Shown piece after piece: positions 3,173 to 45,479 of a stretch of 64,000 nt of DNA. Positions within the stretch are counted from its first letter, which is position 1. Each line of letters begins with the position of its first letter. The position numbers were made by a program, and so were the translations under genes. The notes below the pieces were generated by a model. It was not told where the DNA came from, made no database searches, and saw nothing but the letters and a program-made list of their open reading frames with translations. The DNA comes from an uncultured Burkholderiales bacterium. GTDB lineage: Bacteria; Pseudomonadota; Gammaproteobacteria; Burkholderiales; Thiobacteraceae. The stretch is from positions 812-64,811 of the forward strand of contig CAYUJV010000001.1 of NCBI GenBank assembly GCA_964445085.1, written 5' to 3'.

Positions 3173-3763
3173 TCAGACCGGCCGATTCTCGCCCGGGTCG
3201 CGCACCGGGCCCATGACTTTCAGGCCTTCCTCGTAGCTCATGCTGGGAAAGCTGGCGGAAAACTTCAGCGCGGTGTCGGCAACACGGTCCACCTTGCCCG
3301 CGGTGTCGAGCTTCTTCAGGTCGTTGCGCTCCAGATACAGCAGATCGAGCAGTTCGTTGTATACCGTCGCCTCGTCGATGGGCAATACGTAGAACGTTTT
3401 TCCGTCGTAGGGGACCTGATATTTCTTGCTCAGGTCGATGTTGTTGCAGTAGAGAAAATACTTGCCGTCGGGCTTGAGAGTCGGCCCGATCGCGTCCGCC
3501 AGCGGCTTCAGGTATTCGAAGGACAGCAGGTAGGCCGCCATGAAATCGAGGCCGGCGCCGCCTTCCTCGGCCACGGCGATCACCTGATCGGCGGTGATCT
3601 CGGGGGGGCGCGCCTCATCGGCCAGCTTGGGCGCGAACTTGATGGCGATCTCGCCGCGGAAGCCAAAGCGGCCGGGCTTGCCGGTGGCGCCCTTGAACAC
3701 CGGGTTCTGCAGGCGCTGCTCGGCTTCGAGCTGTTTGAAAGGAGTCTGGTCTAGCGTGGTCAT
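3173..3763 (-). CDS. hypothetical protein (196 aa), first gene of a putative NifA/sigma54 operon
   Basis: ORF-track ORF. A sigma54-type promoter lies about 50 bp upstream. No recognisable domain. Confidence 0.65.
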   Translation of the reverse strand: MTTLDQTPFKQLEAEQRLQNPVFKGATGKPGRFGFRGEIAIKFAPKLADEARPPEITADQVIAVAEEGGAGLDFMAAYLLSFEYLKPLADAIGPTLKPDGKYFLYCNNIDLSKKYQVPYDGKTFYVLPIDEATVYNELLDLLYLERNDLKKLDTAGKVDRVADTALKFSASFPSMSYEEGLKVMGPVRDPGENRPV

Positions 3764-3813
3764 GGCTGAGCTCTTTGCAAAGGTTGAAAAGGCATTCGAT
3801 CAACCCCGCTGAT

Positions 3814-3828
3814 GCAAGAGCGATGCCA
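3814..3828 (-). promoter_or_regulatory. sigma54 (-24/-12) promoter
   Basis: Minus strand reads TGGCAT-cgctc-TTGC, the same TGGCAT variant as the nifB promoter. Confidence 0.6.
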
Positions 3829-3890
3829 GCCGCCCACGCCAAGCCTAAGCCCATGATGCGACGATGGAATCCGCTGGCTCCGGGAACGAG

Positions 3891-3916
3891 GGGCTTGTCG
3901 CGAATGCGACAAGCCC
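3891..3916. promoter_or_regulatory. perfect palindrome containing a NifA-type UAS (could also be the terminator of the 97-aa gene)
   Basis: GGGCTTGTCGC-gaat-GCGACAAGCCC. The core TGTCGCGAATGCGACA (3896-3911) fits TGT-N10-ACA and is centred about 77 bp upstream of the -24 element at 3823-3828. Confidence 0.55.
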
Positions 3917-3919
3917 GCG

Positions 3920-4213
3920 TCAGGCAAGCAGCTGCCCCTGCTCGTCAAAGCGCATCACCCGCGGATCCTCATCCGCCTCGGTGATTTCCGCCTGCTTCAG
4001 GATGCCATTGCCGTGGTATTCGTAGCGATGTTGCAGCTCCACCTCGCCGTACACGATCTTCTCGCACCGCACCATGCGACCGGTCTGGTCGAACCAGGCA
4101 CGGAAATAAGTGTTGCGATTGGCGATGTCGGCCTCCGCCAGCGGGTTCACCAGCTTCAGTGGCAGCTTCACTCCGCTGTAGCTCACGTAATAGCGGCACT
4201 CGACAGGGTCCAT
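3920..4213 (-). CDS. hypothetical protein (97 aa; recalls a DUF6156-type family from memory)
   Basis: ORF-track ORF: MDPVECRYYVSYSGVKLPLKLVNPL...VYGEVELQHRYEYHGNG. TATAAT (minus, 4248..4243) lies about 30 bp upstream. Confidence 0.6.
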   Translation of the reverse strand: MDPVECRYYVSYSGVKLPLKLVNPLAEADIANRNTYFRAWFDQTGRMVRCEKIVYGEVELQHRYEYHGNGILKQAEITEADEDPRVMRFDEQGQLLA

Positions 4214-4273
4214 GGCGGGAGTCTCCGGATGAGGTGGCAGCGATTATAGCCACGGCCACGCCACACTGAACCG

Positions 4274-4289
4274 TGTCGCAAAGCATACA
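4274..4289. promoter_or_regulatory. NifA-type UAS upstream of iscS
   Basis: TGTCGCAAAGCATACA fits TGT-N10-ACA and carries the extended TGTCGCAA half-site. It is centred about 88 bp upstream of the -24 element. Confidence 0.65.
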
Positions 4290-4367
4290 AAGCCTACACA
4301 AGGCGGCGACCCCTTCAATCGCTGTTTCCCCGCGGTTTTTCAGCACATTAGCCACGCGCCGCGCCCA

Positions 4368-4382
4368 TGGCACATGAGTTGC
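4368..4382 (+). promoter_or_regulatory. sigma54 (-24/-12) promoter of the isc-type operon
   Basis: TGGCAC-atgag-TTGC, 68 bp upstream of the iscS ATG. Confidence 0.7.
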
Positions 4383-4449
4383 TAAGGGTGATGGCGAGAG
4401 CGCGGCATGCCGGGTTGCCGCGCAAGCGATGCCAGAAGCGAGATCAAGT

Positions 4450-5661
4450 ATGCCCAAGCTGCCGATCTACCTCGATTACTCCGCCACCACGCCGGTCGAC
4501 CCGCGCGTGGCGGAGCAGATGATTCCTTATCTGACGGAAAAGTTCGGCAACCCCGCCTCGCGCTCTCATTCCTACGGCTGGGAAGCGGAGAAGGCCGTGG
4601 AGCAGGCGCGGGAGGAAGTCGCCGGCCTGGTCAACGCCGATCCCAAGGAGATCGTCTGGACTTCCGGCGCGACCGAATCGGACAACCTCGCCCTCAAGGG
4701 CGCGGCCCAGTTCTACAAGGGCAAGGGCCGGCACCTGATCACCATGAAGACGGAACACAAGGCGGTGCTGGATCCCATGCGCGAGCTGGAGCGTCAGGGT
4801 TTCGAGGTTACCTACCTCGACCCCGAGCCGAACGGCCTGCTCGACCTCGACAAATTCGCAGCCGCGATCCGCCCCGACACCGTCCTCGCCTCGGTCATGC
4901 ACGTGAACAACGAGATCGGCGTGATCCAGGACATCGAGACGATCGGCGAGCTCTGCCGCGCCAAGGGCGTGCTGTTCCACGTGGATGCCGCGCAATCCAC
5001 CGGCAAGGCGCCCATTGATCTCGCCCGCTTGAAAGTCGACCTGATGTCCTTCTCCGCCCACAAGACCTATGGCCCGAAGGGCATCGGTGCCCTGTACGTG
5101 CGGCGCAAGCCCAGAGTCCGCCTGGAAGCGCAGATGCACGGCGGCGGCCATGAGCGCGGCCTGCGCTCCGGCACCCTGCCCACGCACCAGATCGTCGGCA
5201 TGGGCGCCGCCTTCCGCATCGCCGCCGAGGAGATGGCCACCGAAAACGAGCGCATCCGCATGCTGCGCGACAAGCTGTGGGCCGGCATCAGCACTTTGGA
5301 AGAAGTGCACCTCAACGGCGACATGCAGCGCCGCGTGCCCCACAACCTGAACGCGAGCTTCAACTTCGTCGAGGGAGAATCGCTGATGATGGCAATCAAG
5401 GACCTGGCGGTGTCCAGCGGCTCCGCCTGCACCTCGGCCAGCCTGGAGCCGTCCTATGTGCTCAAGGCGTTGGGCCGTAGTGACGAGCTGGCCCACAGTT
5501 CGATCCGCTTTTCCATCGGCCGCTTCACCACCGAGGAAGAGATCGACTACGCCATTTCGCTCATCCACAAGCACGTGGGCAAGCTGCGCGAGCTGTCGCC
5601 GCTGTGGGACATGCACTGCGCCGGCATCGACCTGAACACCGTGCAGTGGGCGGCACATTGA
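4450..5661 (+). CDS. iscS: cysteine desulfurase, IscS type
   Basis: [20 protein letters not shown]...[10 protein letters not shown]...[14 protein letters not shown]...SSGSACTS is colinear with IscS. Internal ATG of ORF 4429..5661. Confidence 0.95.
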
Positions 5662-5666
5662 GGGGC

Positions 5667-5733
5667 GGGTAGCCTGTAGCGATAAAGTCGCGCGCAGCGC
5701 GGCATCAAGTGCCACCCGCTACAAGCTACCGGC
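5667..5733. repeat. palindromic REP-like element, family 1 (GTAGCTTGTAGC type), copy A
   Basis: GGTAGCCTGTAGCG ... GTCGCGCGCAGCGCG ... CGCTACAAGCTACC, in the iscS-iscU gap. Confidence 0.7.
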
Positions 5734-5758
5734 CACCGGCTCAAGATAGGAGATTGCA

Positions 5759-6193
5759 ATGTCTTACAGCGACAAGGTACTGGACCACTACGAGAACCCG
5801 CGCAATGTCGGCGGCTTCGAGGCGGACGATGCATCGGTCGGCACCGGCATGGTGGGCGCCCCGGCCTGCGGCGACGTGATGAAGCTGCAGATCAAGGTGA
5901 ACGACGCTGGCGTGATCGAGGAAGCGCGCTTCAAGACCTACGGCTGCGGCTCGGCCATCGCTTCCAGTTCGCTGGTGACGGAATGGGTCAAGGGCAAGAC
6001 GCTGGACCAGGCGCTGGCGATCAAGAACACCGACATCGCCGAAGAGCTGGCCCTGCCGCCGGTGAAGATCCACTGCTCCATCCTGGCCGAGGACGCCATC
6101 AAGGCGGCCGTGGCCGACTACCGCAACAAGCACGAAGTCGCCGACGCCGGCTACGCCGCCTGCGACCCCAGTTCAGTATCTGGCGCCGCCTAA
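5759..6193 (+). CDS. iscU: Fe-S cluster assembly scaffold IscU
   Basis: [18 protein letters not shown]...[11 protein letters not shown]...[11 protein letters not shown]...[18 protein letters not shown]. Confidence 0.95.
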
Positions 6194-6210
6194 CACAGGA
6201 GATTAGACAG

Positions 6211-6555
6211 ATGGAAGCCGACACCATGAGCCCGATCAACTTCACCGACGCCGCCGCCAACAAGGTCAGGGAAATGATCGCCGACGAAGGCAACGCCGCG
6301 CTAAAACTGCGCGTCTACGTCTCCGGCGGCGGCTGTTCCGGTTTCCAGTACGGCTTCGCCTTCGACGAAAACCGCGCCGAGGACGACACCGTGGTGGAGA
6401 AATGCGGCGTGTCGCTGCTGATCGACCCGATGAGTTTCCAGTACCTGATGGGCGCGGAGATCGACTACCAGGAGAGCCTGGACGGTGCGCGCTTCGTGAT
6501 CAAGAACCCCAACGCCACCTCCACCTGCGGCTGCGGCAGTTCGTTCTCGATGTAA
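6211..6555 (+). CDS. erpA: A-type Fe-S carrier, ErpA-like
   Basis: [39 protein letters not shown]...[11 protein letters not shown] is near-colinear with ErpA as I recall it. Alternative start at 6226. Confidence 0.85.
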
Positions 6556-6566
6556 GGAAGCGAACC

Positions 6567-6890
6567 ATGGCCATCACACTGTCAGAACGCGCCGCCAACC
6601 GGGTCCAGAAGTTTCTTTCCCAGCGCGGCAAGGGCATCGGCCTGCGCCTGGGCGTGCGCACCAGCGGCTGCTCCGGCATGGCCTACACGCTGGAGTTCGT
6701 GGACGAGTCCGCCCCGGATGATCTCAGCTTTGAATCCCACGGCGTGACCGTGCTCATCGACCCCAAGAGCCTGCCTTTTCTCGATGGCACCGAACTGGAC
6801 TTCGTGCGCGAGGGCTTGAACGAGGGTTTCAAGTTCAACAATCCCAATGTGAAGAACACCTGCGGCTGCGGGGAAAGCTTCAACGTTTGA
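6567..6890 (+). CDS. iscA: A-type Fe-S carrier IscA
   Basis: [40 protein letters not shown]...[11 protein letters not shown]. Internal ATG of ORF 6402..6890. Confidence 0.9.
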
Positions 6891-6904
6891 GTGGAGGCCA
6901 CGGC

Positions 6905-7045
6905 ATGAACCACGACCGCAACATGATTCCTCCGGTGCTTGCAGCCGCCGCGATGACCGTCTGCCGGCAATACCTGCCCTTTGCCGTCTGCTCCGGCTTC
7001 GTGGCCCTGGTACTTCAGGTGGTGAGCGGATTGCGCTTTCACTAG
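6905..7045 (+). CDS. possible 46-aa hydrophobic peptide in the slot normally occupied by hscB
   Basis: [46 protein letters not shown]. Below the ORF-track cutoff, with no RBS evident. Confidence 0.2.
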
Positions 7046-7061
7046 ACAGAGCGAAGACATC

Positions 7062-8930
7062 ATGGCCCTCCTCCAGATCGCAGAACCCGGCTTGTGCGCC
7101 GATCCTCACCAGCATCGGCTCGCCATCGGCATTGATCTGGGCACCACCAACTCCCTGGTGGCCACGGTGCGCAGCGGCGAGACGACGGTGCTGGATGACG
7201 AAGCCGGTCGCCCCCTGCTGCCCTCGGTCGTGTGCTACCTTGACGACGGCCAGGTGGAAGTGGGCCACGCCGCCCAGGCGCGCCAGAGCGATGACCCCCA
7301 CAACACCATCGTGTCGGTGAAGCGCTTCATGGGGCGCGGCCTGAAGGACGTGCCGGACGCCGCATCCACACCCTACCGCTTCGTCGACACCCCGGGCATG
7401 GTGCGCCTGGAAACCCGTGCCGGCGTGAAGAGCCCGGTGGAGGTGTCGGCGGAAATCCTCAAGACCCTGCGCGCCCGCGCCGAAGCGGCCCTCGGCGGCG
7501 AACTCACCGGCGCGGTGATCACGGTGCCTGCCTATTTCGACGACGCCCAGCGCCAGGCGACCAAGGACGCGGCGCGGCTCGCCGGCATCAACGTGCTGCG
7601 GCTGCTCAACGAGCCCACCGCCGCCGCGGTGGCCTACGGGCTGGACAATGCCTCGCAGGGCACGTTCTGCGTCTACGACCTGGGCGGCGGCACCTTCGAC
7701 ATTTCCATCCTGCGCCTCAAGCAGGGCATCTTCGAAGTGGTGGCCACGAACGGCGATTCCACCCTCGGCGGCGACGACTTCGACGAACGCATCTACCGCT
7801 GGATCGTCGACCAGTGCGGCATGACCGGCCTCTCCGCCGGCGACATGCGCCTGCTCCTGAGCGCGGCGCGCAGGGCAAAGGAGGCCCTGACCGATGCCGA
7901 GGAAACCCGCATCGCCGTCACGCTCTCCTCCGGCCGGACCATCAACCTGAATTTGAGCGCAGACACGTTCTTCGCCCTCACCGCCGATCTCGTCGCGCGC
8001 ACCCTGGGACCGACGCGCAAGGCCCTGCGCGATGCCGGTCTGGCTGCCGAGGACATCGACGGCGTGGTGCTGGTCGGCGGTTCCACCCGCATGCGCCACG
8101 TGCGCGAGGCGGTGCAGAAATACTTCCACCGCGAGCCGCTCACCAATCTCGACCCGGACAAGGTGGTGGCCCTGGGCGCCGCCATGCAGGCCAACCTGCT
8201 GGTGGGCAACCGCAAGGCGGACGACTGGCTGCTGCTGGATGTGATCCCCCTGTCCCTGGGGCTGGAGACCATGGGCGGCCTGGCGGAGAAGGTCATTCCG
8301 CGCAATGCCACCATCCCCGTCGCACGGGCGCAGGAGTTCACCACCTTCAAGGACGGCCAGACCGCGATGAGCATCCACGTGGTGCAGGGCGAGCGCGAGC
8401 TGGTGAATGACTGCCGGTCCCTCGCCCGCTTCGAGCTGCGCGGGATTCCGCCCATGGTGGCGGGCGCGGCGCGCATCCGCGTCACCTTCCAGGTGGACGC
8501 CGACGGCCTGCTGTCCGTCTCGGCGCAGGAGCAGACCAGCGGTGTGCAGGCGACGATCGAGGTCAAGCCCTCCTATGGGCTCTCCGACGACGAGATCGCG
8601 CGCATGCTGCGGGAGTCCTACACCCATGCCCAGGATGACATGGACGCGCGCAACCTGCGCGAGCAGCGGGTGGACGGCCTGCGCCTGATCGAAGCGACCC
8701 AGGCGGCCCTGGACCAGGATGGCGCGGCCCTGCTGTCCGACACCGAGCGCGCCGGCATCGAACGGGCAATGGAAACGCTGCGGGTGCTGCTCAACGGCCC
8801 GGACTGGAATGCCATCAAGCGCGCCGCCGATTCGCTCAACCGCGTCACCACCCAGTTCGCCGCGCGGCGCATGGACGCGAGCGTCCAGCGCGCCCTGTCG
8901 GGACAGCGGCTGGATGCGATCGAGGTCTGA
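7062..8930 (+). CDS. hscA: Fe-S cluster assembly chaperone HscA (Hsp70 type)
   Basis: 622 aa. [13 protein letters not shown]...DLGGGTFD...[12 protein letters not shown], with an HscA-type N-terminus [10 protein letters not shown]. Confidence 0.95.
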
Positions 8931-8934
8931 AGCG

Positions 8935-9273
8935 ATGCCGCAGCTCATCGTGCTGCCCCACGAAACCCTGTGCCCGGACGGCGCCGCATTGGAGGCCCCA
9001 AGCGGCGCGACCATCTGCGACGCCCTGCTCGCCGCCGGCATCGAGCTCGACCACGCCTGCGAGCAGTCCTGCGCCTGCACCACCTGCCATGTCATCGTGC
9101 GCGAGGGCCTCGACTCGCTGAACCCAAGCACCGAGCAGGAGGACGACCTGCTCGACAAGGCCTGGGGGCTGGAGCCGGAATCGCGCCTCGCCTGCCAGGC
9201 CGTGGTCGATGGCACGGACTTGGTGATCGAGATACCTAAATACTCGATCAACATGGTCAAGGAAGGGCATTGA
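8935..9273 (+). CDS. fdx: ISC-system [2Fe-2S] ferredoxin
   Basis: MPQLIVLPHETLCPDG...ACEQSCACTTCHV...SRLACQ. Begins 5 nt after the hscA stop. Confidence 0.9.
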   Translation: MPQLIVLPHETLCPDGAALEAPSGATICDALLAAGIELDHACEQSCACTTCHVIVREGLDSLNPSTEQEDDLLDKAWGLEPESRLACQAVVDGTDLVIEIPKYSINMVKEGH

Positions 9274-9363
9274 GATGAGTCTGTCCTGGCCAGCGCGCTG
9301 TCACAAGAACAGGCTCTGCATCGTGCTGCGCGCATCGGGGATTCTGGTGCAGAAAATCGTGCT

Positions 9364-9394
9364 GTTCTCGGTGTTCTCCGTGCCGCTGTGGTGA
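9364..9394. repeat. REP-like element, family 2 (CTCTGTGCCTCTGTGGTGA type), single arm
   Basis: GTTCTCGGTGTTCTCCGTGCCGCTGTGGTGA resembles the arms at 15318-15446. Confidence 0.45.
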
Positions 9395-9487
9395 GTGGGA
9401 AGACGTCCCTCTCCGCCGGGGTGAGGGTGCGGCGATCCCAATCCCGCCCACCACGTTGAACGCCGGCCTTTTTTGCGGAGGTCCCTC

Positions 9488-10600
9488 ATGCGCATCGGCG
9501 TCCCGAAGGAAATCAAGGACCATGAATACCGTGTCGGCGTCACCCCTGCCGGCGTGAGCGCGTTCAAGGCCCACGGCCACGGCGTGCTGGTGGAAGCCGG
9601 GGCCGGCGCGCGCATCGGCTTCAGCGATGCCCTGTACGAGGCGGCGGGCGCCATGATCGCCGGCCGCAGCGAAGTCTACGCCTGCGACATGATCGTCAAG
9701 GTCAAGGAACCGCAGCCCACGGAGGTCTCCTTGCTGCGCGAGGGGCAGGTGCTGTTCTGCTACCTGCATCTCGCTCCCGAGCCGGAACTCACCCGCGGCC
9801 TGCTCGAACGCAAGGTCATCGGCATCGCCTACGAGACGGTCACCGACGCCCAGGGCGCCCTGCCGCTGCTCACGCCCATGTCGGAAGTCGCCGGCCGCCT
9901 CGCGGTGCAGGCCGGCGCCACGGCGCTGCAGATCGCCAACGGCGGCAGCGGCGTGCTGCTCGGCGGCGTGCCGGGCGTGGCGCCGGGCAAGGTGCTCGTC
10001 CTGGGCGGCGGCGTGTCGGGCATCAATGCCGCGAAGCTGGCGCTGGGTCTCGGTGCCGACGTCACCGTGCTCGACATCAACCTCGCGCGGCTGCGCTATC
10101 TGGACGACGTATTCGGCATGCGCCTGAAAACGCGCTTCTCCGAACCGGCCGCGCTCGCCGCGCTCACGCCCGAGGCCGACCTGGTCATCGGCGCCGTCCT
10201 CATCCCGGGCGGGCGCGCGCCGCAGCTGTTGACGCGCGAGATGATCAAGGCGATGAAGCCGGGCTCCGCTTTCGTGGACATCGCCATCGACCAGGGCGGC
10301 TGCGCCGAGACCTCGCGCCCCACCACCCATTCCGACCCGACCTATGTCGAGCATGGGGTGGTGCACTACTGCGTCACCAACATGCCCGGCGCCACCGCGC
10401 GCACCTCCACCCTGGCCCTGACCCAGGCCACGCTGCCGCTGGCGCTGGAGCTGGCGGACAAGGGCTACGCCCGCGCGCTCCTGGACAATCCCGGGCTGCA
10501 GGATGGGCTGAACGTGTTTCGCGGCCAGGTCACGCATCCGGCGGTGGCGGCGGATCTTGGCTATGCGCTGGAGCCGGTGGAGACGGCGTTGGCGGCATAG
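9488..10600 (+). CDS. ald: alanine dehydrogenase
   Basis: [23 protein letters not shown]...[14 protein letters not shown]...[19 protein letters not shown]. Confidence 0.9.
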
Positions 10601-10699
10601 TTGCGGTTGCGCGCTTCCCGTGCCTTCTTTCGGGCCGGGTGTGCCCCGGCGCCTGTCGAGACTCACATGACCGCCTGTCGGCCGCGTTTCCCGCGGCGA

Positions 10700-10762
10700 A
10701 ATCCTCCCTGTCCCCTCTTTTGCAAAGAGGGGAACCTGCTACACAAGGACTTAGCAGGTTCC
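10700..10762. repeat. REP-like double hairpin downstream of ald
   Basis: TCCCCTCTT-ttgca-AAGAGGGGA (10711-10733), followed by GGAACCTGCT-N12-AGCAGGTTCC (10731-10762). No T-run. Confidence 0.4.
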
Positions 10763-10866
10763 TCCCGTTGGCAAGGACAGAAGGGATTTCAGCGGCGCCA
10801 CTCGATCGGGTAATTTCCAACAAGACACTGCACGCCAACGCACCTCACCCGATCCGCAAATATCCC

Positions 10867-10882
10867 TGTCGCAATCCCTACA
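10867..10882. promoter_or_regulatory. NifA-type UAS upstream of nifV
   Basis: TGTCGCAATCCCTACA, centred about 93 bp upstream of the -24 element. Confidence 0.65.
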
Positions 10883-10965
10883 ATCCGCGACAAATGTCGC
10901 TTCCCCCTCCCCTGCGGTTTCCCATTCAAAGCGGTAACAGCCTGATTGGCGCCAGGAATTTCCGC

Positions 10966-10981
10966 TGGCACAGCCCTTGCT
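10966..10981 (+). promoter_or_regulatory. sigma54 (-24/-12) promoter of the nifV operon
   Basis: TGGCAC-agccc-TTGCT, 40 bp upstream of the nifV ATG. Confidence 0.7.
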
Positions 10982-11019
10982 CCATACCCAAGCGAAAGCG
11001 ATTCATCTTCGGAGCGAAC

Positions 11020-12162
11020 ATGGCCCAACCTTCGGTAGTCGTAAACGACACGACCCTGCGCGATGGCGAGCAGACCGCCGGCGTGGCCTTCACCGCCGAA
11101 GAGCGCATCGCCATCGCCCGCGCCCTGGCCGCGGCCGGGGTGCCGGAAATGGAGGTCGGCATTCCGGTGATGGGGCCGGACGAGCAAGAGAACATCCTCG
11201 CCATCGCCCGGCTCGGCCTGCCGTCGAATCTCATGGCGTGGGGCCGCATGTGCGACGCCGACCTGACCGCCGCCGCCAGCTGCGGCGTGCATATCGTCAA
11301 CCTGTCGATCCCGGTGTCCGACATCCAGATCCGCCACAAGCTGGGCCGCGACCGGGAATGGGTGCTCGACAGCATCACCCACTTCGTGAGCATGGCCCTG
11401 GATCTGGGCATGGACGTGTGCGTCGGCGGCGAGGACGCCTCGCGCGCCGACATGGATTTCCTGCTGCGGGTGGTCGACGCGGCCCAGGTCGCCGGCGCGC
11501 GCCGCTTCCGCTTCGCCGACACCCTGGGCCTGCTTGACCCGTTCACCACGTTCAAGCGCATCAACCAGCTGCGCGAGGCCACCGACCTGGAGCTGGAGAT
11601 GCATGCCCATAACGACCTCGGCCTGGCGACGGCCAACACCCTCGCCGCCGTGCTCGCCGGTGCCACGCACATCAACACCACGGTCAATGGCCTCGGCGAG
11701 CGCGCCGGCAACGCCGCGCTGGAGGAATCCGTCACCGCGATGCATCACCTGTACAACGTGCAGACCGGCATCGACACCCGCCACTTCCCGGAGATTTCGC
11801 GCCTCGTGGCGATCGCATCCGGTCGACCGGTCCCCGTGAACAAGAGCATCGTCGGCGACGGCGTGTTCACCCACGAGTCCGGCATCCACGTTGATGGCCT
11901 GATCAAGAACCCTCTCAACTACCAGGGCCTCCCCCCCGAGGAAGTCGGCCGCACCCACAAGCTGGTGCTCGGCAAGCATTCCGGCTCGAGCGCGGTCAGG
12001 CAGGCCTATGCCGGCATCGGCATCACGCTCACCGATTTCGAGGCCAAGACGCTGCTGGCCCGCATCCGCGAACACGCCGTGGCCACCAAGCGCACCCCGA
12101 CGCCGGCGGACCTGGAGCGCTTCTATCTCGAAGCGCTGCCCCGCGCGCTGGCGCGGTCCTGA
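11020..12162 (+). CDS. nifV: homocitrate synthase NifV
   Basis: VNDTTLRDGEQTAGVAF...HAHNDLGLATANTLAA...VNGLGERAGNAALEE. Internal ATG of ORF 10639..12162. Confidence 0.9.
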   Translation: MAQPSVVVNDTTLRDGEQTAGVAFTAEERIAIARALAAAGVPEMEVGIPVMGPDEQENILAIARLGLPSNLMAWGRMCDADLTAAASCGVHIVNLSIPVSDIQIRHKLGRDREWVLDSITHFVSMALDLGMDVCVGGEDASRADMDFLLRVVDAAQVAGARRFRFADTLGLLDPFTTFKRINQLREATDLELEMHAHNDLGLATANTLAAVLAGATHINTTVNGLGERAGNAALEESVTAMHHLYNVQTGIDTRHFPEISRLVAIASGRPVPVNKSIVGDGVFTHESGIHVDGLIKNPLNYQGLPPEEVGRTHKLVLGKHSGSSAVRQAYAGIGITLTDFEAKTLLARIREHAVATKRTPTPADLERFYLEALPRALARS

Positions 12163-20232: not shown

Positions 20233-20706
20233 TCATCCATATCTGGCCGCGTCCGGGAACTGCTCGATCATCGCGATCCCCGCCGCCACCTGCTTCTCCC
20301 CTTCTGCCGCGAGTTTCTCCATGCTCTCGAAGCCAAAGCGATGAACATCCCGCAGCTGCTTGTTGACCACCACCAGCCGACCCGCCAGCAGCACCATGCG
20401 GCCAAAGCCTTCGTGGTGCATCTTCAGCATCGGCGACACCATGATGCCGGTGGCGCGCTCGATGGCGAGGCCGATGGCGTTGTAGAACAGCTCCAGCCGC
20501 CACAAGGTCTCCGGGTCGGGGTCGCCGATGATGGGCATTTCCCGGCGCTGCTCCCTGGTGATGATGTAGGGTTCCAGCAGCTTGGCATCGCTCTTGCCTT
20601 CCCACGCGCCGTGGGCGTCCTGGGCGCGCCACTGCTTGATCAGTTCCTTGACGAACACCGACTCCATCGGGTCGGCTTCGACGACTGCGGCTTCGGTGCT
20701 GCCCAT
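20233..20706 (-). CDS. NifX-associated nitrogen fixation protein (DUF269)
   Basis: [27 protein letters not shown]...[36 protein letters not shown]. Confidence 0.85.
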
Positions 20707-27664: not shown

Positions 27665-29309
<1,645 letters not shown>

Positions 29310-29338: not shown

Positions 29339-29353
29339 GCAACGCCTGTGCCA
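29339..29353 (-). promoter_or_regulatory. sigma54 (-24/-12) promoter of the Rrf2 gene
   Basis: Minus strand reads TGGCAC-aggcg-TTGC, 30 bp upstream of the Rrf2 ATG. Confidence 0.55.
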
Positions 29354-29420: not shown

Positions 29421-29436
29421 TGTCGCAAACCATACA
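29421..29436. promoter_or_regulatory. NifA-type UAS shared by divergent promoters
   Basis: TGTCGCAAACCATACA. Centred about 77 bp from the minus-strand -24 and about 93 bp from the plus-strand -24. Confidence 0.6.
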
Positions 29437-29519
29437 CTCCGGCCCGGCTTGTCCGACATGCGACAGGCTTGGGTGGCGCGCCACCGCGCCAGGCCGCATG
29501 CCGACGAGGCCTGTGCGAT

Positions 29520-30819: not shown

Positions 30820-31749
30820 GTGATCGGGGACGACGTGCAGGAACGCGCGCTGGGCGCCTATCTGGGCTTCGCCGTCGGCGACGCCCTGGGAGCAACGGTC
30901 GAATTCATGACAGCCGCCGAGATTCAACACAACTACGGCATGCACCGCGACATGATCGGTGGCGGCTGGCTCAAGCTCAGGCCGGGCGAGGTCACCGACG
31001 ACACGCAGATGTCCCTGGCGCTGGGACAGGCCATCGTCGACAGCGGCGGCTGGAATGCGCGCGCCGCCGCCGATGCTTTCGCCGCGTGGCTCAAGTCCAA
31101 ACCCATCGACGTGGGCAACACCTGCCGCCGCGGGATTCAGCGCTACATCATGGAGGGTACGCTGGCCGGCCCGCCCAACGAAGGCGACGCCGGCAACGGC
31201 GCCTGCATGCGCAACCTGCCGCTGGCGCTCGCGACGCTGACTGATGACGAAGCATTCGCGCGCGCGACCTTGGAGCAGTGCCACCTCACCCACCACCATC
31301 CCTTGTCGGACGCCGCCACGCTGGCCTTCGGAAGAATGACGCGCACCCTGATCCGCGGCGGCGGCTTCAGGGACTGCCGGGCGGAGGCGAACCGCCTGAT
31401 CGATGCGTTTCCGGTGTTCCGCTTCGACCCCTATCCCAGGCGCGCCTCGGGCTATATCGTCGATACGACCCAGACGGTGCTGCACTATTTTTTCCGCACC
31501 GACAACTTCGAGGATTGCGTGACCGAGGTGGTGAACCGCGGCGAGGACGCGGACACCAACGGCGCGCTGGCCGGCATGCTGGCGGGCGCCGCCTATGGCG
31601 TATCGGACATTCCGGGCTACTGGCTGAAGAAGCTGGACAAGAAAGTCCGGGCGCGCATCGAGGAGCAGACCGAGGCGCTGCTGGGCATCGCCGCCACAAT
31701 ACCCAAGGGGCAAGAATCGAGTCGGAAGCCCCGGCAACCTGCGCCCTGA
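30820..31749 (+). CDS. draG: ADP-ribosyl-[dinitrogen reductase] glycohydrolase DraG
   Basis: GTG start. ALGAYLGFAVGDALGATVEF...EVTDDTQM...GEDADTNGALAGMLAGA (ARH family signatures). Confidence 0.85.
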   Translation: MIGDDVQERALGAYLGFAVGDALGATVEFMTAAEIQHNYGMHRDMIGGGWLKLRPGEVTDDTQMSLALGQAIVDSGGWNARAAADAFAAWLKSKPIDVGNTCRRGIQRYIMEGTLAGPPNEGDAGNGACMRNLPLALATLTDDEAFARATLEQCHLTHHHPLSDAATLAFGRMTRTLIRGGGFRDCRAEANRLIDAFPVFRFDPYPRRASGYIVDTTQTVLHYFFRTDNFEDCVTEVVNRGEDADTNGALAGMLAGAAYGVSDIPGYWLKKLDKKVRARIEEQTEALLGIAATIPKGQESSRKPRQPAP

Positions 31750-31777
31750 ACCTTGTAATTTGAACTTTCGTGCCACC

Positions 31778-33826
31778 ATGGCCACTTTGATTTTTTATGA
31801 AAAGCCCGGCTGCGCGAACAATGCACGGCAGAAGCGGCTGCTGCTCGATGCCGGGCACGAACTCATCGTCCGCGACCTGCTGAGCGAGCCGTGGACGGCG
31901 CAGCGCCTGCTGACATTCTTCGACGGCCTGCCAGTCGCCGAGTGGTTCAACCGCGCCGCGCCGCAGGTGAAATCCGGCGAGATCGACCCGGCGCGCGTTG
32001 GGGCCGAGGCGGCGCTGAAACTGATGCTGAGCAATCCATTGCTGATCCGGCGTCCGCTGATCGAAGGGAACGGCTGGCGGCTTGCGGGCTTCGACGCCGA
32101 GTTCGTACGCAGGCACCTGGGCGTGGCACCGGACGATGCGCCGCGCGACCTCGAGTCCTGCCGCCGTCCACCTGGCGCGGCCCCCTGCCCCGCGCCCCAG
32201 GACAGCCGGCGCGCGGAGGTGGCGCTCGCCTACCACGAGCGCACCAAGCATCGCCCTGAGCGCTACGCCGCCGGTCCGGAGACCCTGGACTGGACGGGCC
32301 AGCCGGACCCGTTCCGTACATTCAAGGGAAGTCCCACCCTCCGCCTGCCGCTGTGCGGCGGGCGCCTGGCCACCTCCTTCGCCGGCATCTATACGCCAGA
32401 GGAAGTCTGGTCGCCGGCGCTATCGCTGGATGCGCTGGGCGCGCTGCTGGAACTGTCGCTCGGCCTGTCGGCGTGGAAGGAATACGGCCCGGACCGCTGG
32501 GCGCTGCGCTGCAACCCCTCCAGCGGCAACCTGCACCCGACCGAGGCCTACGTGATCGCGCGTGGCATCGCGGGACTGGATGACGGCCTCTATCACTACG
32601 CGAGCCGCAGCCACGCGCTGGAGCAACGCTGTCGCGCACCAGCGGATGGAGCGGCGAGCGAGCACGGGCTGTGGATCGGGCTCTCCTCGATCCACTGGCG
32701 CGAGGCGTGGAAATACGGCGAGCGTGCCTTTCGCTATTGCCAGCTCGACGTGGGCCATGCCCTGGCCGCGCTGCGCTACGCCGCCGGCGTGCTCGGCTGG
32801 CGGCTGCGCCTGGTGACGGCCTGCGAGCACTCGCATCTGGCGCGGCTGCTGGGCCTCGATCGGGTCGAGGATTTTCCCGGCGCGGAACGGGAGGACGCCG
32901 ACCTGCTGGTGCAGGTGCTGCCACGAACCGAACCCAAACTGACTGCCGCGGCGCCTGAGCCCTGGCCGGACGCGCACTCGATGTGGATGGGCCAGGCGAA
33001 TACCCTCGATCCCCATCCCATGTACAGCTGGCCGGTCATCGACGAAGTCGCGGCCGCCACGAAAAAAACCGGGCAGGCGACGGAAGCACCCGCGCGCAGC
33101 CAGTATCCGCCCGCGACCCCCGCCGCCGGGCTGCCCGCCGCCCAGGTCATCCTCGGCCGGCGCAGCGCGCAGCGTTTCGATCCGCAGTTCGTCCTGCCAG
33201 CCAAGGACTTTTTCCACCTGCTCGACAGCCTGCTTCACCGGCCGCACGCGCCGTGGGACGTATGGGACCATGGGCCCAGGGTTCATCCCGTTCTGTTCGT
33301 GCACCGCGTGGAGAGCATCGCGCCCGGGCTTTACATCCTGGTGCGTGCGCCGGACGCGGAGGTGCGGTTGCGCACGGCAATGAGCGATGAGTTCGAATGG
33401 GAACGCGTGCAAGGCTGCCCGGCACACCTTCCCCTGTTCCGCCTGCAGCCCGGCAAGTGGCACAAGGTCGCGCGCGCGGTGAGCTGCCAGCAGGCCATCG
33501 CCGCCGACAGCTGCTTCTCGCTGGGCATGCTGGCAGAGTTCGAACCCACCCTGCGGGAGGACGCCTGGCGCTACCGCCAGTTGCACTGGGAAGCAGGTCT
33601 GCTGGGGCACGTGCTGTATCTCGAAGCGGAAACGCTGGAGCTGCGCGGCACCGGCATCGGCTGCTTCCTCGACGATGCGTTCCACGAACTGCTGGGGCTG
33701 AAGGACCGCAGCTTCCAGTCCCTCTACCACTTCACGGTGGGCCGCGCGCTCAGCGACACGCGCATCACCACCCTGCCGCCTTACCCGGACCGCGAGGCGG
33801 TGCCCGACACGGAGCCCATGCCATGA
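31778..33826 (+). CDS. fusion protein: ArsC/Spx-fold 'nitrogenase-associated protein' domain plus tandem SagB/nitroreductase-like dehydrogenase domains
   Basis: N-terminus MATLIFYEKPGCANNARQKRLLLDAGHELIVRDLLSEPWT...WFNRAAPQVKSGEI. After a Pro/Ala linker comes AYHERTKHRPERYAAGPETLDWTGQPDPFR...CNPSSGNLHPTE...GIGCFLDD. Confidence 0.75.
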   Translation: MATLIFYEKPGCANNARQKRLLLDAGHELIVRDLLSEPWTAQRLLTFFDGLPVAEWFNRAAPQVKSGEIDPARVGAEAALKLMLSNPLLIRRPLIEGNGWRLAGFDAEFVRRHLGVAPDDAPRDLESCRRPPGAAPCPAPQDSRRAEVALAYHERTKHRPERYAAGPETLDWTGQPDPFRTFKGSPTLRLPLCGGRLATSFAGIYTPEEVWSPALSLDALGALLELSLGLSAWKEYGPDRWALRCNPSSGNLHPTEAYVIARGIAGLDDGLYHYASRSHALEQRCRAPADGAASEHGLWIGLSSIHWREAWKYGERAFRYCQLDVGHALAALRYAAGVLGWRLRLVTACEHSHLARLLGLDRVEDFPGAEREDADLLVQVLPRTEPKLTAAAPEPWPDAHSMWMGQANTLDPHPMYSWPVIDEVAAATKKTGQATEAPARSQYPPATPAAGLPAAQVILGRRSAQRFDPQFVLPAKDFFHLLDSLLHRPHAPWDVWDHGPRVHPVLFVHRVESIAPGLYILVRAPDAEVRLRTAMSDEFEWERVQGCPAHLPLFRLQPGKWHKVARAVSCQQAIAADSCFSLGMLAEFEPTLREDAWRYRQLHWEAGLLGHVLYLEAETLELRGTGIGCFLDDAFHELLGLKDRSFQSLYHFTVGRALSDTRITTLPPYPDREAVPDTEPMP

Positions 33827-34614
33827 GCCACGAAAAACCCTTTCAGCGCATCGACGCCGAAGCCGCGCGCCGCCTGCTCGCCCGCGGCAAGGTGCTGGTG
33901 CTGGATTCCCGCGACCAGGTTCGCTTCGACCTGGCGCACATTCCCACGGCGCGGCACCTGACCAGCGGCAATCTGGACGCCTTCGTGCTCGCCACGCCGA
34001 AAACCACGCCGGTGCTGATCTACTGCTACCACGGCAACGCGAGCCAAACCCACGCCCAGACCTTCGCCGACTTCGGCTTTGGCGAGGTCTACAGCCTGGA
34101 TGGCGGCTTCGCCGCTTGGCAGCGGGCGCAGCCGAAATCGTCCCCGCCCACGCTCACGCTGCGGCTTGCCCAATGGCTGCGGGAACATGGCTATCCCGCC
34201 GACGACCTCGACGCGGTGGCAGAACACGGCATGACGCCCCTGATGCGCGCCGCCAAGCTGGGCGACACGGCGATCGTGTTCGAACTGATCCAGAGCGGCG
34301 CCGCCCTCGACGCCACCAACGTGGACGGCAATACCGCGCTGTGGCTGGCCTGCGTGGGCGAAAGCCTGGAGGCCATCGACCTTCTCATCCGCGCCGGCGC
34401 GAACCCGGACCACCAGAACGATAACGGTGCCACCTGTCTGATGTATGCCGCCTCGACGGGAAAGCATCGGGTGGTGGAGCAGTTGCTGGCGTCCGGGGCG
34501 GACCCGCGGCTGAAGAGCCTGGACGATTTCACCGCGCTGGACATGGCGGCGACGATCGAGTGCCTGCGGACGTTGCGGAAGGCAACGAAAGACCCCACGC
34601 CGATGGCGGGCTGA
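33823..34614 (+). CDS. rhodanese (GlpE-type) - ankyrin-repeat fusion protein
   Basis: Active-site loop CYHGNAS and DGGFAAW, followed by ankyrin repeats (GMTPLMRAAKLGDTAIVFELIQSGAALDATNVDGNTALWLA...). ATGA overlap with the upstream gene. Confidence 0.75.
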   Translation: MSHEKPFQRIDAEAARRLLARGKVLVLDSRDQVRFDLAHIPTARHLTSGNLDAFVLATPKTTPVLIYCYHGNASQTHAQTFADFGFGEVYSLDGGFAAWQRAQPKSSPPTLTLRLAQWLREHGYPADDLDAVAEHGMTPLMRAAKLGDTAIVFELIQSGAALDATNVDGNTALWLACVGESLEAIDLLIRAGANPDHQNDNGATCLMYAASTGKHRVVEQLLASGADPRLKSLDDFTALDMAATIECLRTLRKATKDPTPMAG

Positions 34615-35572: not shown

Positions 35573-35584
35573 GATCGCTTCTCC

Positions 35585-35797
35585 TCAGGCCGCAGACGAT
35601 TTCAGTTGATCGATCTGCTGGCGCGGGATCCGGAAGATGGCACGCCCGCCGGACAGGACTTCATAGCAGTCGGTGGTGGCGCGGGTGAGCAGGTTGAACC
35701 AGTCCTGCGCACTGAGCGTACCCGGGCGCTCGCCGATTTCGGTGACGCTGCCGTTGGGGGCGAAGCGTACGTGGATCATGACCTTGTCGTTGTCCAT
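35585..35797 (-). CDS. hypothetical protein (70 aa)
   Basis: ORF-track ORF with a GGAGAG RBS, 16 bp after the ferredoxin gene. No recognisable domain. Confidence 0.55.
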   Translation of the reverse strand: MDNDKVMIHVRFAPNGSVTEIGERPGTLSAQDWFNLLTRATTDCYEVLSGGRAIFRIPRQQIDQLKSSAA

Positions 35798-35813
35798 GGT
35801 GTCTCTCCGCGAC

Positions 35814-36119: not shown

Positions 36120-36157
36120 GGCTTTGCTCCTTGGGTGTCGGGTGAGTCGTAGATAAG

Positions 36158-37827: not shown

Positions 37828-38982
37828 TCATGCCGCCTCGGCGGTCAGTCGTTTGACGATGGAACCCAGCGCATCGAGCACGCGGTCGATCTCTGCCTCA
37901 GTCGTGTAGCGGCTCAGGGAGAAGCGAATGGTCGCCAGTGCCTCCGCCTCGCTCAGCCCCATGGCGGTCAGCACGTGCGACGGCACATTGCCGCCGGCGG
38001 TGCACGCCGCGCCGGAGGAGGCGCAGATGTGCGCCTTGTCCAGGCGGTCGAGGATCACCTCGGCCTGCAGCCCGCCGAAGCAGATGCTGCTGGTGTTGCC
38101 GATGCGCGGGGCCAGCCCGCCGTTGAGGGTGGTGCCCGGGATGCGCATGAGCACGCCGGTCTCGAGCCGGTCGCGCAGGGCAGTGGTCTGCCTGGCTTTC
38201 GCCTGCAGCTCGGCGGCGGCGAGCTCGCAGGCGACGCCCAGGCCGACGATGGCCGGCACGTTCTCCGTCCCGCCGCGGCGCCTGCGCTCCTGGTGGCCAA
38301 ACAGCAGGGGCGGAAATTTCAGCCCCTTGCGCACGAACAGGGCGCCAACCCCCTTGGGCGCGTGCAGCTTGTGGCCGGAGAGGGAAAGCAGGTCGGCCGG
38401 TATCTGCGCCAGGTCGATGGGCGCCTTGCCCGCCGCTTGCACGGCATCGGTGTGGAACAGCACGCCCTTGGATTTGGCGATACGCGCCGCCTCCGCTATG
38501 GGGAACAGTACCCCGGTTTCGTTGTTGGCCCACATCAGGGACACCAGGGCGGTGTCGGCGGTGATCGCCCGCTCCAGCGCCATGAGGTCGAGCATGCCTT
38601 CGCCGTTGACGGGCAGCCGGGTCACGCGCAGGCCACCGCGCTCCAGCTGCGCCAGCAGTTCCAGGCTGGAGGGATGCTCCACCGCGCTCACCACCACGTG
38701 CGACTTGCCCGGGCATGCGGCCAGCGCCCCGAGAATGGCAAGGTGGTTGGATTCCGTGCCGCAGGAGGTGAACACGATCTCCGCCGGCGCCGCATTGAGC
38801 AGGCGCGCCACGGCGCGCCGCGCCTGTTCCACCTGCTCCCTGGCGGCCACACCCGCGGCGTGTTTGCTGGACGGATTGCCGTAGAGATCGCGCAGGCAGC
38901 GCAAGACCGGCTCCACGCATTCCGGCGCCAAGGCCGTGGTGGCGTTGTTGTCCAGATACACGATGGGGTCCTGATCCGTCAT
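37828..38982 (-). CDS. nifS: cysteine desulfurase NifS
   Basis: VYLDNNATT...TSCGTESNHLA...LSLSGHKLHAPKGVGALF...SSGAACT. 384 aa. Internal ATG of ORF 37828..39537. Confidence 0.9.
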   Translation of the reverse strand: MTDQDPIVYLDNNATTALAPECVEPVLRCLRDLYGNPSSKHAAGVAAREQVEQARRAVARLLNAAPAEIVFTSCGTESNHLAILGALAACPGKSHVVVSAVEHPSSLELLAQLERGGLRVTRLPVNGEGMLDLMALERAITADTALVSLMWANNETGVLFPIAEAARIAKSKGVLFHTDAVQAAGKAPIDLAQIPADLLSLSGHKLHAPKGVGALFVRKGLKFPPLLFGHQERRRRGGTENVPAIVGLGVACELAAAELQAKARQTTALRDRLETGVLMRIPGTTLNGGLAPRIGNTSSICFGGLQAEVILDRLDKAHICASSGAACTAGGNVPSHVLTAMGLSEAEALATIRFSLSRYTTEAEIDRVLDALGSIVKRLTAEAA

Positions 38983-41250: not shown

Positions 41251-41616
41251 TCAGTGCTTGCGCCCGATGCTGGAGATATCGACGCTGGCGACGCCGCCGC
41301 TCGAACTGCTGCAGCCGCAGGAGGGCGAATTCGGCGTGACGAAGGTCAGGCCGCTGTTGGTCGGCGTGTCGGCGAAGTCCATGGTAGCGCCTTCCAGCAG
41401 CAGGCGACTTTCCGCCGGCAGGAAGAACTTCACGCCGTTGACCTCGACCACCGCATCGCCCTCTTTCGGCGCCGCTTCCACGGTGAATTCGGACGCGAGT
41501 CCGGAACAGCCGCCGGCGCTGACCATCAGGCGAAAGCCGGCGTTCTCGCCCGCACCGCCGAAGCGGATCATGCGGCGCACGAACTTCTCGGCGGCGGGCG
41601 TCATCGTGAACTGCAT
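41251..41616 (-). CDS. HesB/IscA-family Fe-S carrier (IscA-nif type)
   Basis: FRLMVSAGGCSGLASEF ... SCGCSSS C-terminal Cys pair. Confidence 0.8.
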   Translation of the reverse strand: MQFTMTPAAEKFVRRMIRFGGAGENAGFRLMVSAGGCSGLASEFTVEAAPKEGDAVVEVNGVKFFLPAESRLLLEGATMDFADTPTNSGLTFVTPNSPSCGCSSSSGGVASVDISSIGRKH

Positions 41617-43775: not shown

Positions 43776-45392
43776 CTAAAGGCGTTTGACTTCGATGTTG
43801 TACTTCTGCAGCGCGTAGCCGATCTGACGGGGCGTCAGATTCAGCAGGCGCGCGGCCTTCGCCTGCACCCAGCCGCACTGCTCCATCGCCCACACCAGGC
43901 GCTCGCGTTCCGTCGTGAAGACTGGTTCTTCCGTGCCGGCAGGCTCGTCGGTTGCGCCCGGCGGAGCGCTTCGGGCAGCGGCCGCGACCGGGGCGATCGA
44001 AACCACCTGCTGCGCCTGACCGTAGTGCTGCAGCACCTGCGAGAAGCACTTGTTCTGCTGGCAGGGCAGGTCCACGTCCTGGATCACATTGCCCCGGGTC
44101 ATGGTGGCGGTGCGCTCGACGCAGTTCTCCAGCTCCCGCACATTGCCGGGCCAGTTGCACTTGAGCATGACTTCCAGCGCCTCGGGCGAAATGGACAGCT
44201 TGCGTTCGTTCTCCTTGTTGAACTTGTCCAGGAAGTGCTCCACCAGCAGCGGAATGTCTTCCCGCCGCTCGCGCAGGGGCGGCAGGAAGATGCTCACCAC
44301 GTTGACGCGGTAATAGAGGTCGGCGCGAAAGGTGCCCTTCGCCACATCTTCTTCCATGTTGCGGTTGGTGGCGGCGATCAGGCGCACATCGACCTTGATC
44401 GACTTGTTCCCGCCCACGCGTTCGAACTCCCGCTCCTGCAGCACGCGCAGCAGCTTGGTCTGGAACGACGGCGAGATTTCCCCCAGCTCATCCAGAAACA
44501 GCGTGCCGCCCTGGGCCATTTCGAAGCGGCCCTTGCGTTCCTGCGTGGCGCCGGTGAAGGACCCTTTTTCGTGGCCGAACAGTTCGGACTCGAGCAGCGT
44601 CTCGGACAGGGCGGCGCAGTTGACCTTGATGAAGGGGGCGTCCTTGCGCGGGCTCAGGTAGTGGATCGAGCGGGCGATCACCTCTTTGCCGGTGCCGCTC
44701 TCGCCGCGCAGGAGCACGGTCGACTTGCCCGGTGCCGCCTGGTGCACCTCGGCGAAGACTTCCTGCATGCGCTTGCTGCGGCCGATGACGTTGTCCAGGC
44801 GGTACCTGCCCTGCAGTTCCTTCTGCAGGCGATGCTGGTACTGCATCAGTTCCTCGCGCTCGGCAGCGACGTTGTCGTGCAGGCGGGTGATCTGGCCGAT
44901 CAGGTTGGCGATCATGGCCAGGAAGCGCACGTCCGCTTCGAAGTTGACCGGGCCGCCGTCCACCTCGCGGTCCACGCTCAACACCCCCACGGTTTCGCGC
45001 CCCACCTTGATCGGCACGCCGATGAAGGCGACCACGCGCCCTTCCGCCATGCTGCGCGAGCCGGTTCGGTTGAGGAACAGGGGCTCCTTCGCCACGTCCG
45101 GTATCACCATGGGCATGCCGGTCTCGAGGATCCGCCCGGTGATGCCCTCCCCTTTGCGGAAACGCCCGCGTTGCGCCGCCTCGGCCGACATGCCCGTTGC
45201 CTCAACTACGTGCAGGTCGCCGGATGCCTGCACCAAACTGATCATGCCGCGCCGCATCTTGAGGTGCGACGAAAGCACGCCGAGCACCTCTCTCGCCGTC
45301 TTGTTCAGGTCGAGGGAGGAACTCAGTATCTTGCTGATTTCATATATGGTTGCGAGCTCGATGCTCGCCTCGTGCGTCGGAAATGCGCCCAT
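43776..45392 (-). CDS. nifA: sigma54-dependent nif-specific activator NifA
   Basis: GAF N-terminus, AAA+ core ([14 protein letters not shown]-like [14 protein letters not shown]), an inter-domain C-X11-C-X19-C-X4-C motif ([13 protein letters not shown]...CQQNKC) and a C-terminal HTH. The ORF-track start at 45428 is TTG, so ATG 45392 is preferred. Confidence 0.9.
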
Positions 45393-45464
45393 ATCAGCCA
45401 ACCCCGCTGGGCCGGATGACGGCCCCAAGAAACAACAATGGTGACACCATGGTCATTTCAGGGA

Positions 45465-45479
45465 GCAAGTAGCGTGCCA
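45465..45479 (-). promoter_or_regulatory. sigma54 (-24/-12) promoter of nifA
   Basis: Minus strand reads TGGCAC-gctac-TTGC, about 70 bp upstream of ATG 45392. Confidence 0.6.

Follow-up and report, generated by a model that had tools for sequence, protein, structure and literature searches.

A probable nitrogen-fixation-specific ISC operon without hscB in the nif island of a Thiobacillus-like betaproteobacterium

Which machinery supplies iron-sulfur (Fe-S) clusters to nitrogenase when a nif island has no NifU? The question is raised by 64,000 nucleotides of contig CAYUJV010000001.1, from an uncultured Burkholderiales bacterium of the Thiobacteraceae. This stretch, hereafter the window (64 kb, 65% G+C), is mostly nif island, and it carries an operon of the iron-sulfur cluster (ISC) type, iscS-iscU-erpA-iscA-hscA-fdx. 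The housekeeping ISC operon of E. coli and Azotobacter vinelandii reads iscRSUA-hscBA-fdx-iscX, and the nitrogen fixation (NIF) system of A. vinelandii is encoded by nifUSV-cysE-nifWZM. We estimate at about three in four the probability that the operon of the window is a second ISC operon, specific to nitrogen fixation in a Thiobacillus-like betaproteobacterium, which does the work of NifU and uses an HscB provided in trans.

Gene identities were assigned by an NCBIfam profile search with curated cut-offs, and all six isc genes score above them (Table 1), which bears out the gene order of an original prediction made from the letters of the window. The operon shares with housekeeping ISC the order of its genes and their products, i.e., IscS, IscU (with three Cys and LPPVK), IscA, HscA, and an ISC ferredoxin, with 71-85% identity to the proteins of the canonical operon of a sister assembly. 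It differs in having no iscR, hscB, or iscX, in the insertion of erpA between iscU and iscA, in a predicted NifA/sigma-54 promoter instead of IscR/sigma-70 control, in its place within a nif island, and in the presence of ald after it. The ratio of nonsynonymous to synonymous substitution (dN/dS), computed between the window and one of two related loci (L084 or L081), is 0.05-0.14 for iscS, iscU, erpA, iscA, and hscA (0.07-0.08 for iscS, 0.12-0.14 for hscA) and 0.11-0.31 for fdx. By this measure, the isc genes are under strong purifying selection.

Control by NifA is predicted from two motifs upstream of iscS, an activator site and an exact sigma-54 consensus (Table 1). Both lie at the positions and in the order first proposed; their distance, given then as about 88 bp, is 94 bp from start to start and 78 bp between the motifs, and the promoter ends 67 bp before the ATG of iscS (4450). 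An activator site is expected about 80-150 bp before a -24/-12 promoter (GG-N10-GC), a range that includes this spacing. Chance expectations were estimated from 300 first-order Markov simulations, a pair being defined as an activator site 60-200 bp upstream of a promoter. Nine matches to TGGCA[CT]-N5-TTGC are observed in the window, against 0.47 expected, and six pairs against 0.013. The six pairs precede iscS, nifV, nifB, nifH, a gene for an Rrf2-family regulator, and a gene for a 196-amino-acid protein lacking a family match. No sigma-70-like promoter is predicted in 3700-11100. An IscR type-1-like half-site noticed by eye just downstream of the promoter in some relatives was dropped, as it is not conserved in the window.

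Table 1. Positions in the window of the isc operon, its predicted control sites, and other features discussed (aa, amino acids; ORF, open reading frame)
Feature	Position	Strand	Evidence
NifA upstream activator site TGTCGCAAAGCATACA (TGT-N10-ACA)	4274..4289	+	motif match
Sigma-54 (-24/-12) promoter TGGCACATGAGTTGC (TGGCAC-N5-TTGC, exact consensus)	4368..4382	+	motif match
iscS, cysteine desulfurase, 403 aa	4450..5661	+	NF010611, 749 bits (cut-off 548); IscS subfamily
iscU, scaffold, 144 aa	5759..6193	+	TIGR01999, 224 bits (cut-off 192)
erpA-type A-type carrier, 114 aa from ATG 6211 or 109 aa from 6226	6211..6555	+	NF010147, 190 bits (cut-off 117)
iscA, A-type carrier, 107 aa	6567..6890	+	NF007049, 187 bits (cut-off 181)
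Small hydrophobic ORF in iscA-hscA gap, 46 codons, coding status uncertain	6905..7045	+	no family match
hscA, Hsp70-type Fe-S chaperone, 622 aa, without hscB in cis	7062..8930	+	NF003520, 993 bits (cut-off 620)
fdx, ISC-type [2Fe-2S] ferredoxin, 112 aa, no iscX after it	8935..9273	+	TIGR02007, 177 bits (cut-off 132)
ald, alanine dehydrogenase	9488..10600	+	TIGR00518, 507 bits
Terminator-like hairpin, 9 bp after ald	10609..10623	+	suggestive by position alone; count of such sites in the region not above chance
Rrf2 (IscR-family) regulator, 151 aa, C-X7-C-X5-C-X2-H motif, just upstream of nifH	28854..29309	-	PF02082, 103.5 bits
nifS-like cysteine desulfurase, neighbours DUF3024 and nifT	37828..38982	-	best model TIGR03402, 496.8 bits (cut-off 530.75)
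HesB/IscA-family carrier in nifB operon (third A-type carrier)	41251..41616	-	TIGR00049, 71 bits (cut-off 58.8)
nifA, presumed activator of the operon	43776..45428	-	TIGR01817, 753 bits (cut-off 529)

The distribution of the site pair among relatives follows that of the nif linkage. It is found in all 10 nif-linked isc loci and in none of 62 canonical isc loci among the matches listed, where the 900 bp before iscS hold no -24/-12 match. Six Thiobacillus-clade loci of distinct sequence have the identical 15-mer TGGCACATGAGTTGC, and their activator site reads TGTCGCAAA[A/G]CA[T/A]ACA within flanks that vary from GC-rich to AT-rich. The activator site is near-identical in L081, L084, L085, L086, and L087, and takes variant forms in a Sulfuricella assembly (L001, TGTCTCAAACCCTACA with TGGCATAAGACTTGC) and in HGW-Betaproteobacteria-1 (L032, TGTAAGCAACCTGACA with TGGCACAGCTCTTGC). 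The spacing from activator site to promoter is 94-104 bp in all nif-linked loci examined. An alignment of eight upstream regions from these three lineages has a mean column identity of 58%, and the majority of its invariant columns belong to the TGT/ACA half-sites, to the TGGCA...TTGCT promoter, or to the ATG. The conserved pair is the strongest in silico evidence available for NifA/sigma-54 control, and together with the presence of nifA in the window it supports the wiring originally proposed.

A sigma-54 promoter could also be driven by another enhancer-binding protein, such as NtrC, and the operon would then respond to general nitrogen limitation. Other activators may indeed act in the island, because nifA is itself preceded by an exact TGGCAC-N5-TTGC (45465-45479, minus strand, 37 bp upstream of its longest-ORF start) with no paired TGT-N10-ACA, which suggests that nifA may be sigma-54 dependent via an activator of this kind. 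For the isc operon, such control is quite improbable: the upstream element is a canonical pair of NifA half-sites that begins with TGTCGCAA, as do those before nifV, nifB, and the Rrf2 gene, and it lies at the usual distance of ~100 bp, invariant across lineages.

The relatives also tell whether the operon is a second copy. A search of species-representative genomes with HscA gave 80 loci, of which 71 have full-length IscS, IscU, and HscA (here and for the counts that follow, among the matches listed). Most loci read iscS-iscU-iscA, a gap of 550-760 bp, and hscA-fdx, without erpA and at identities of at most 71%. The gap was confirmed to be hscB in L005 and L006, the former also having cysE-iscR upstream. 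Only nif-linked loci have erpA between iscU and iscA, and this nif-type operon recurs in the nif islands of three betaproteobacterial lineages. In the Sulfuricella assembly, nifA is followed by iscS-iscU-erpA-iscA-hscA-fdx, with an iscA-hscA gap of 19 bp and no hscB. In HGW-Betaproteobacteria-1, iscS-iscU-erpA-iscA-hscB-hscA-fdx is followed by nifV and nifW.

The third lineage is the one of the window. Its HscA belongs to a tight clade of ~55 clusters (formed at 90% identity from JGI, ENA, NCBI, and Logan) that are 79-91% identical to it, several of them named Thiobacillus sp. Beyond this clade, identity drops to 74% or less, the named proteins come mostly from other betaproteobacterial genera, with few from Thiobacillus, and those relatives whose loci were retrieved have canonical operons. 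The contigs retrieved for five clusters of the clade (L081-L087) all have the nif-type operon. In L081, L084, L085, and L087 one can follow the order iscSU-erpA-iscA-hscA-fdx-ald-nifV-cysE-nifW-fixABCX, and L086 stops within ald at the contig end.

Both types of operon are found in one sister assembly, DATMWS01 (Thiobacillus sp. SMAG_U13100): the nif-type HscA P0014 is encoded on DATMWS010000207.1 (L086) and a canonical iscS-iscU-iscA-hscB-hscA-fdx on DATMWS010000033.1 (L006). The two contigs, linked by their whole-genome shotgun prefix, have 59.3% and 61.5% G+C, and the proteins common to the two operons are 71-85% identical. Since DATMWS01 holds a nif-linked and a canonical operon, the operon is a paralogue, as had been surmised, and the second canonical isc operon to be sought, with its hscB, is at hand in this relative. 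When the GenBank protein accessions of nif-type HscA clusters were matched with those of housekeeping ones, no pair from a single genome was obtained.

These data bear on a further alternative, that the operon is the only ISC system of the organism, under NifA plus an unrecognized constitutive promoter. The view is limited to this part of the genome, and hscB could lie elsewhere alone. Against this stand the separate canonical operon with hscB of the sister assembly, the canonical iscR-iscSUA-hscBA-fdx of other Thiobacillus genomes (L005), the lack of a sigma-70-like promoter in the interval searched, and the split of HscA relatives into two distinct identity classes. Hence, this alternative is highly improbable.

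The missing partners were sought in the window by tblastn, with two HscB proteins, the E. coli IscX, a Thiobacillus IscR, and IscU as queries. Neither HscB query has a match in the 64 kb, the best hit (E = 0.07) lying inside nifD; IscX has none; and the IscR query matches only the distant Rrf2 gene near nifH, ~20 kb away from the operon. The gene immediately upstream is a divergent DUF6156 gene (3920-4213, minus strand), not iscR. The statements that no iscR precedes iscS, that no iscX follows fdx, and that the 171 bp between iscA and hscA (6891-7061) encode no HscB were all correct. The HscA without a cis-encoded co-chaperone is a conserved trait, for iscA and hscA are 10-23 bp apart in five related loci (L081, L085, L086, L087, and L001) and 169 bp apart in L084.

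The longer gap of the window contains a small ORF, which has a counterpart in L084 (9848-9982, 44 codons, 45% amino-acid identity, dN/dS 0.27) and is absent from the five loci with short gaps. The two versions have in common the pattern AMT.C..YLP...C.G.V...L..VSGLR. The idea that the gap is a relic of hscB was rejected, as it has no similarity to HscB and holds this ORF common to L084.

The HscA of the window retains the motif R-L-L-N-E-P-T, in which three residues are the equivalents of DnaK R167, N170, and T173, which contact the J-domain, as well as the LLLDV linker. IscU retains its ligands Cys37, Cys63, and Cys106 together with the LPPVK motif. The retained motifs fit an HscA that still works with a J-protein. 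Because the locus of HGW-Betaproteobacteria-1 still holds hscB, a secondary loss of this gene in the other lineages is suggested. Such a loss may have occurred because a housekeeping HscB can serve both HscA/IscU pairs, and we infer that the nif-type HscA uses it in trans.

A feature of IscU was considered separately. All 10 nif-linked copies (the window, L001, L032, and L081-L087) have a C-terminal tail of 14-19 residues with a fourth Cys in a (G/S)Y..C.P motif. It was rejected as a nif-specific marker, as 10 of the 71 canonical IscUs from related taxa have a similar Cys tail.

The NifU function is left without its usual protein in the island. NCBIfam and Pfam scans of the likely genes of the 64 kb (ORFs of at least 50 amino acids chosen by codon-position GC) found no NifU or Nfu domain, and IscU used as a tblastn query matches only itself in the window. 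IscU matches only the N-terminal part of the three-domain NifU model TIGR02000, with 140 bits for a cut-off of 273. The island otherwise encodes nifHDK, ENX, B, Q, V, W, Z, S, T, and A and fixABCX. Its nifS-like gene is the last but one of the run nifB-fdx-hesB-TPR-LRV-nifZ-nifZ-DUF3024-nifS-nifT. The original prediction was right on the absence of nifU both beside nifS and in the 64 kb. Its premise that nif clusters normally use NifU/NifS overstates the rule, and its count of two A-type carriers is accurate for the operon and overlooked the HesB-like third (41251-41616, minus strand). It also overlooked the Rrf2 gene, the probably co-transcribed ald, and the relative still holding hscB, and was otherwise supported by the in silico evidence.

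Compared with the NifU/NifS of A. vinelandii, the operon likewise appears to be a Nif-regulated, dedicated Fe-S supply; it adjoins nifV-cysE-nifW, and its IscU domain is homologous to the N-terminal domain of NifU. The two differ in that scaffold, ferredoxin, and carrier are on separate proteins in the window, in that a chaperone is included, and in that a three-domain NifU is lacking and the nifS-like gene lies elsewhere without nifU. The operon probably stands in for the missing NifU scaffold and would supply the functions usually given by NifU.

It might instead be a NifA-induced booster of general Fe-S capacity, serving the additional need of diazotrophic cells for Fe-S clusters and their repair (for FixABCX, ferredoxins, and respiration) while nitrogenase is matured by a NifU or Nfu elsewhere in the genome or by the housekeeping ISC. 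This would accord with the separate nifS-like gene, with the HesB-like carrier in the nifB operon, with a view limited to 64 kb, and with the many Fe-S proteins co-induced in the island, which has at least six ferredoxin-type genes in addition to FixX and an LRV Fe-S protein. Yet the nif regulon looks otherwise complete without a NifU or Nfu domain, and in L001 and L032 the operon has no second IscU/NifU N-domain within 10 kb of it. We regard a mere booster as unlikely.

A nitrogen-fixation-specific paralogue acting in place of NifU is therefore the interpretation that we retain. Established are the gene identities, the conservation of motifs, the paralogy, the purifying selection, and an island without hscB, iscR, iscX, or nifU; what the model adds to them is a transcript dependent on NifA, the delivery of clusters to nitrogenase by the operon products, an HscB acting in trans, and an Ald that recycles alanine. 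When fixed nitrogen and oxygen are low, NifA would bind the TGT-N10-ACA site, 94 bp upstream of the -24/-12 promoter, and activate the sigma-54 RNA polymerase. The resulting transcript would cover iscS-iscU-erpA-iscA, the small ORF, hscA, and fdx, and probably ald. IscS would draw sulfur from cysteine and Fdx would give the electrons for the assembly of [2Fe-2S] and [4Fe-4S] clusters on IscU. HscA would then bind the LPPVK motif of IscU, and the cluster would pass to the carriers ErpA and IscA. Because these carriers would load NifH, NifDK, NifB, NifEN, and the many nif-linked ferredoxins, the operon would do the work that the three-domain NifU does elsewhere. Such a separate ISC line would serve nitrogenase and its partners, whose need for Fe-S clusters is very high, in a NifU-less island. 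An iscR would be unnecessary in this line because NifA would have taken over control.

Several points weigh against this interpretation. The dependence of the iscS transcript on NifA is deduced from motifs and their conservation. The two operons were seen together in a metagenome-assembled genome of a sister organism (HscA 85% identical), not in that of the window, and an error of binning is possible there. The absence of nifU covers 64 kb, and a nifU, an Nfu-type carrier, or a SUF system may lie elsewhere in the genome. The nifS-like desulfurase co-exists with IscS, and the two may divide the labour between them. Finally, neighbour-joining trees of IscS, IscU, HscA, and their concatenation, which set the nif-type proteins against the housekeeping copies as had been proposed, recover the Thiobacillus nif-type clade and give no robust support for grouping L001 and L032 with it (bootstraps of 7/50 and 14/50). 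A single origin is unproven since the three nif-linked lineages are not united in these trees. The insertion of erpA in all of them argues for common descent, and lineage-specific duplication or gene conversion may be an alternative origin.

The arrangement is less unprecedented than was first implied. In Mesorhizobium loti R7A, iscN-iscU was shown by experiment to be NifA-RpoN dependent, and its deletion causes a partial Fix defect (PMC3538637). These genes and the iscN of Rhizobium etli resemble the operon in that a diazotroph without a full NifU has ISC-type scaffold and carrier genes controlled from a NifA/sigma-54 promoter; M. loti has two genes only, whereas the window encodes an entire ISC line with a desulfurase, a chaperone, a ferredoxin, and two carriers (PMC3538637). 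A fosmid from acid mine drainage described in 2014 contains nifA-hscA-erpA-nifB and nifS without nifU, and according to its authors HscA and ErpA may take part in the Fe-S assembly of nitrogenase (PMC3912193). In a 2025 survey, group G7 has "isc (hscA, iscA, iscN, iscU, iscS)" beside nif genes (PMC11773926), and another survey has iscA and iscS among the frequent neighbours of nif genes (PMC12685144). In linking isc with nif genes, and in listing hscA and erpA but no hscB, the fosmid and the surveys agree with the window (PMC11773926, PMC12685144, PMC3912193). They differ from the present analysis in being gene lists, where promoter conservation, paralogy, and the loss of hscB are not addressed. 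A 2026 review still equates the NIF system with NifUS only (PMC13066941). In the literature, we found no experimental study of such an operon and no paper analysing its promoter, its paralogy, or its loss of hscB. A nifSU-hesB-hscBA-fdx operon may exist in Leptospirillum ferrooxidans and was given no weight here.

The operon probably extends beyond fdx, to judge from gene order. Ald follows fdx in every Thiobacillus-clade locus (L081-L087), a promoter-motif search found none in the fdx-ald interval, and the transcription unit probably ends with ald. Alanine is a product of cysteine desulfurases, and the next operon contains cysE; for these reasons Ald could, speculatively, recycle the alanine that the desulfurases release.

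The Rrf2 gene has its own exact sigma-54 promoter (29339-29353, minus strand) and two TGT-N10-ACA sites (29421-29436 and 29450-29465). Its product could exert an IscR-like feedback within the nif regulon, and a link to the isc operon is speculative. On the other side of the iscS promoter region, the 196-amino-acid protein without a family match (3173-3763, minus strand) is encoded divergently from iscS, with a promoter at 3814-3828 (minus strand) and a NifA site at 3896-3911. A gene matching it by position and length is found in L084, L085, L086, and L087. The 15-mer of its promoter, TGGCATCGCTCTTGC, occurs twice in the window, at 3814-3828 (minus strand) and at 20583-20597 (plus strand), the second time inside a NifX-associated gene of the opposite strand.

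The island also has unusual passengers, at 30820-34614 (plus strand) and 34706-37309 (minus strand). They include a DraG-like ADP-ribosylglycohydrolase, a rhodanese-ankyrin protein, a SIR2_2-domain protein, and a DegT-type aminotransferase beside nifT. A further one, with ArsC and nitroreductase domain matches, has a longest ORF of 688 amino acids that overlaps the next ORF, its gene model being provisional.

A wider proposal can be put forward tentatively, as less likely than not. A widespread clade of chemolithoautotrophic diazotrophs might mature its nitrogenase without NifU by a complete NifA-driven ISC paralogue, whose HscA would share the housekeeping J-protein or run without one. The part of the nif-linked set that cannot be dispensed with might be HscA and ErpA, the only two kept on the fosmid from acid mine drainage. 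The Rrf2 protein encoded next to nifH, presumably induced by NifA and bearing cluster ligands, might give an IscR-like feedback on Fe-S supply while nitrogen is being fixed.

In Azotobacter, the NIF and ISC systems are reported to substitute for each other to a limited degree. A regulated ISC paralogue seemingly in the role of NifU offers a test of nitrogenase specificity in Fe-S assembly lines, and a natural experiment on the extent to which HscA depends on a co-encoded HscB. IscS, IscU, ErpA, IscA, HscA, and Fdx would also make a modular set of parts for the engineering of nitrogen fixation in hosts that run ISC. Since the clade is common in metagenomes, with its ~55 HscA clusters at 90% identity, the operon is relevant to Thiobacillus-type diazotrophs of the environment, which may supply their nitrogenase in this way.

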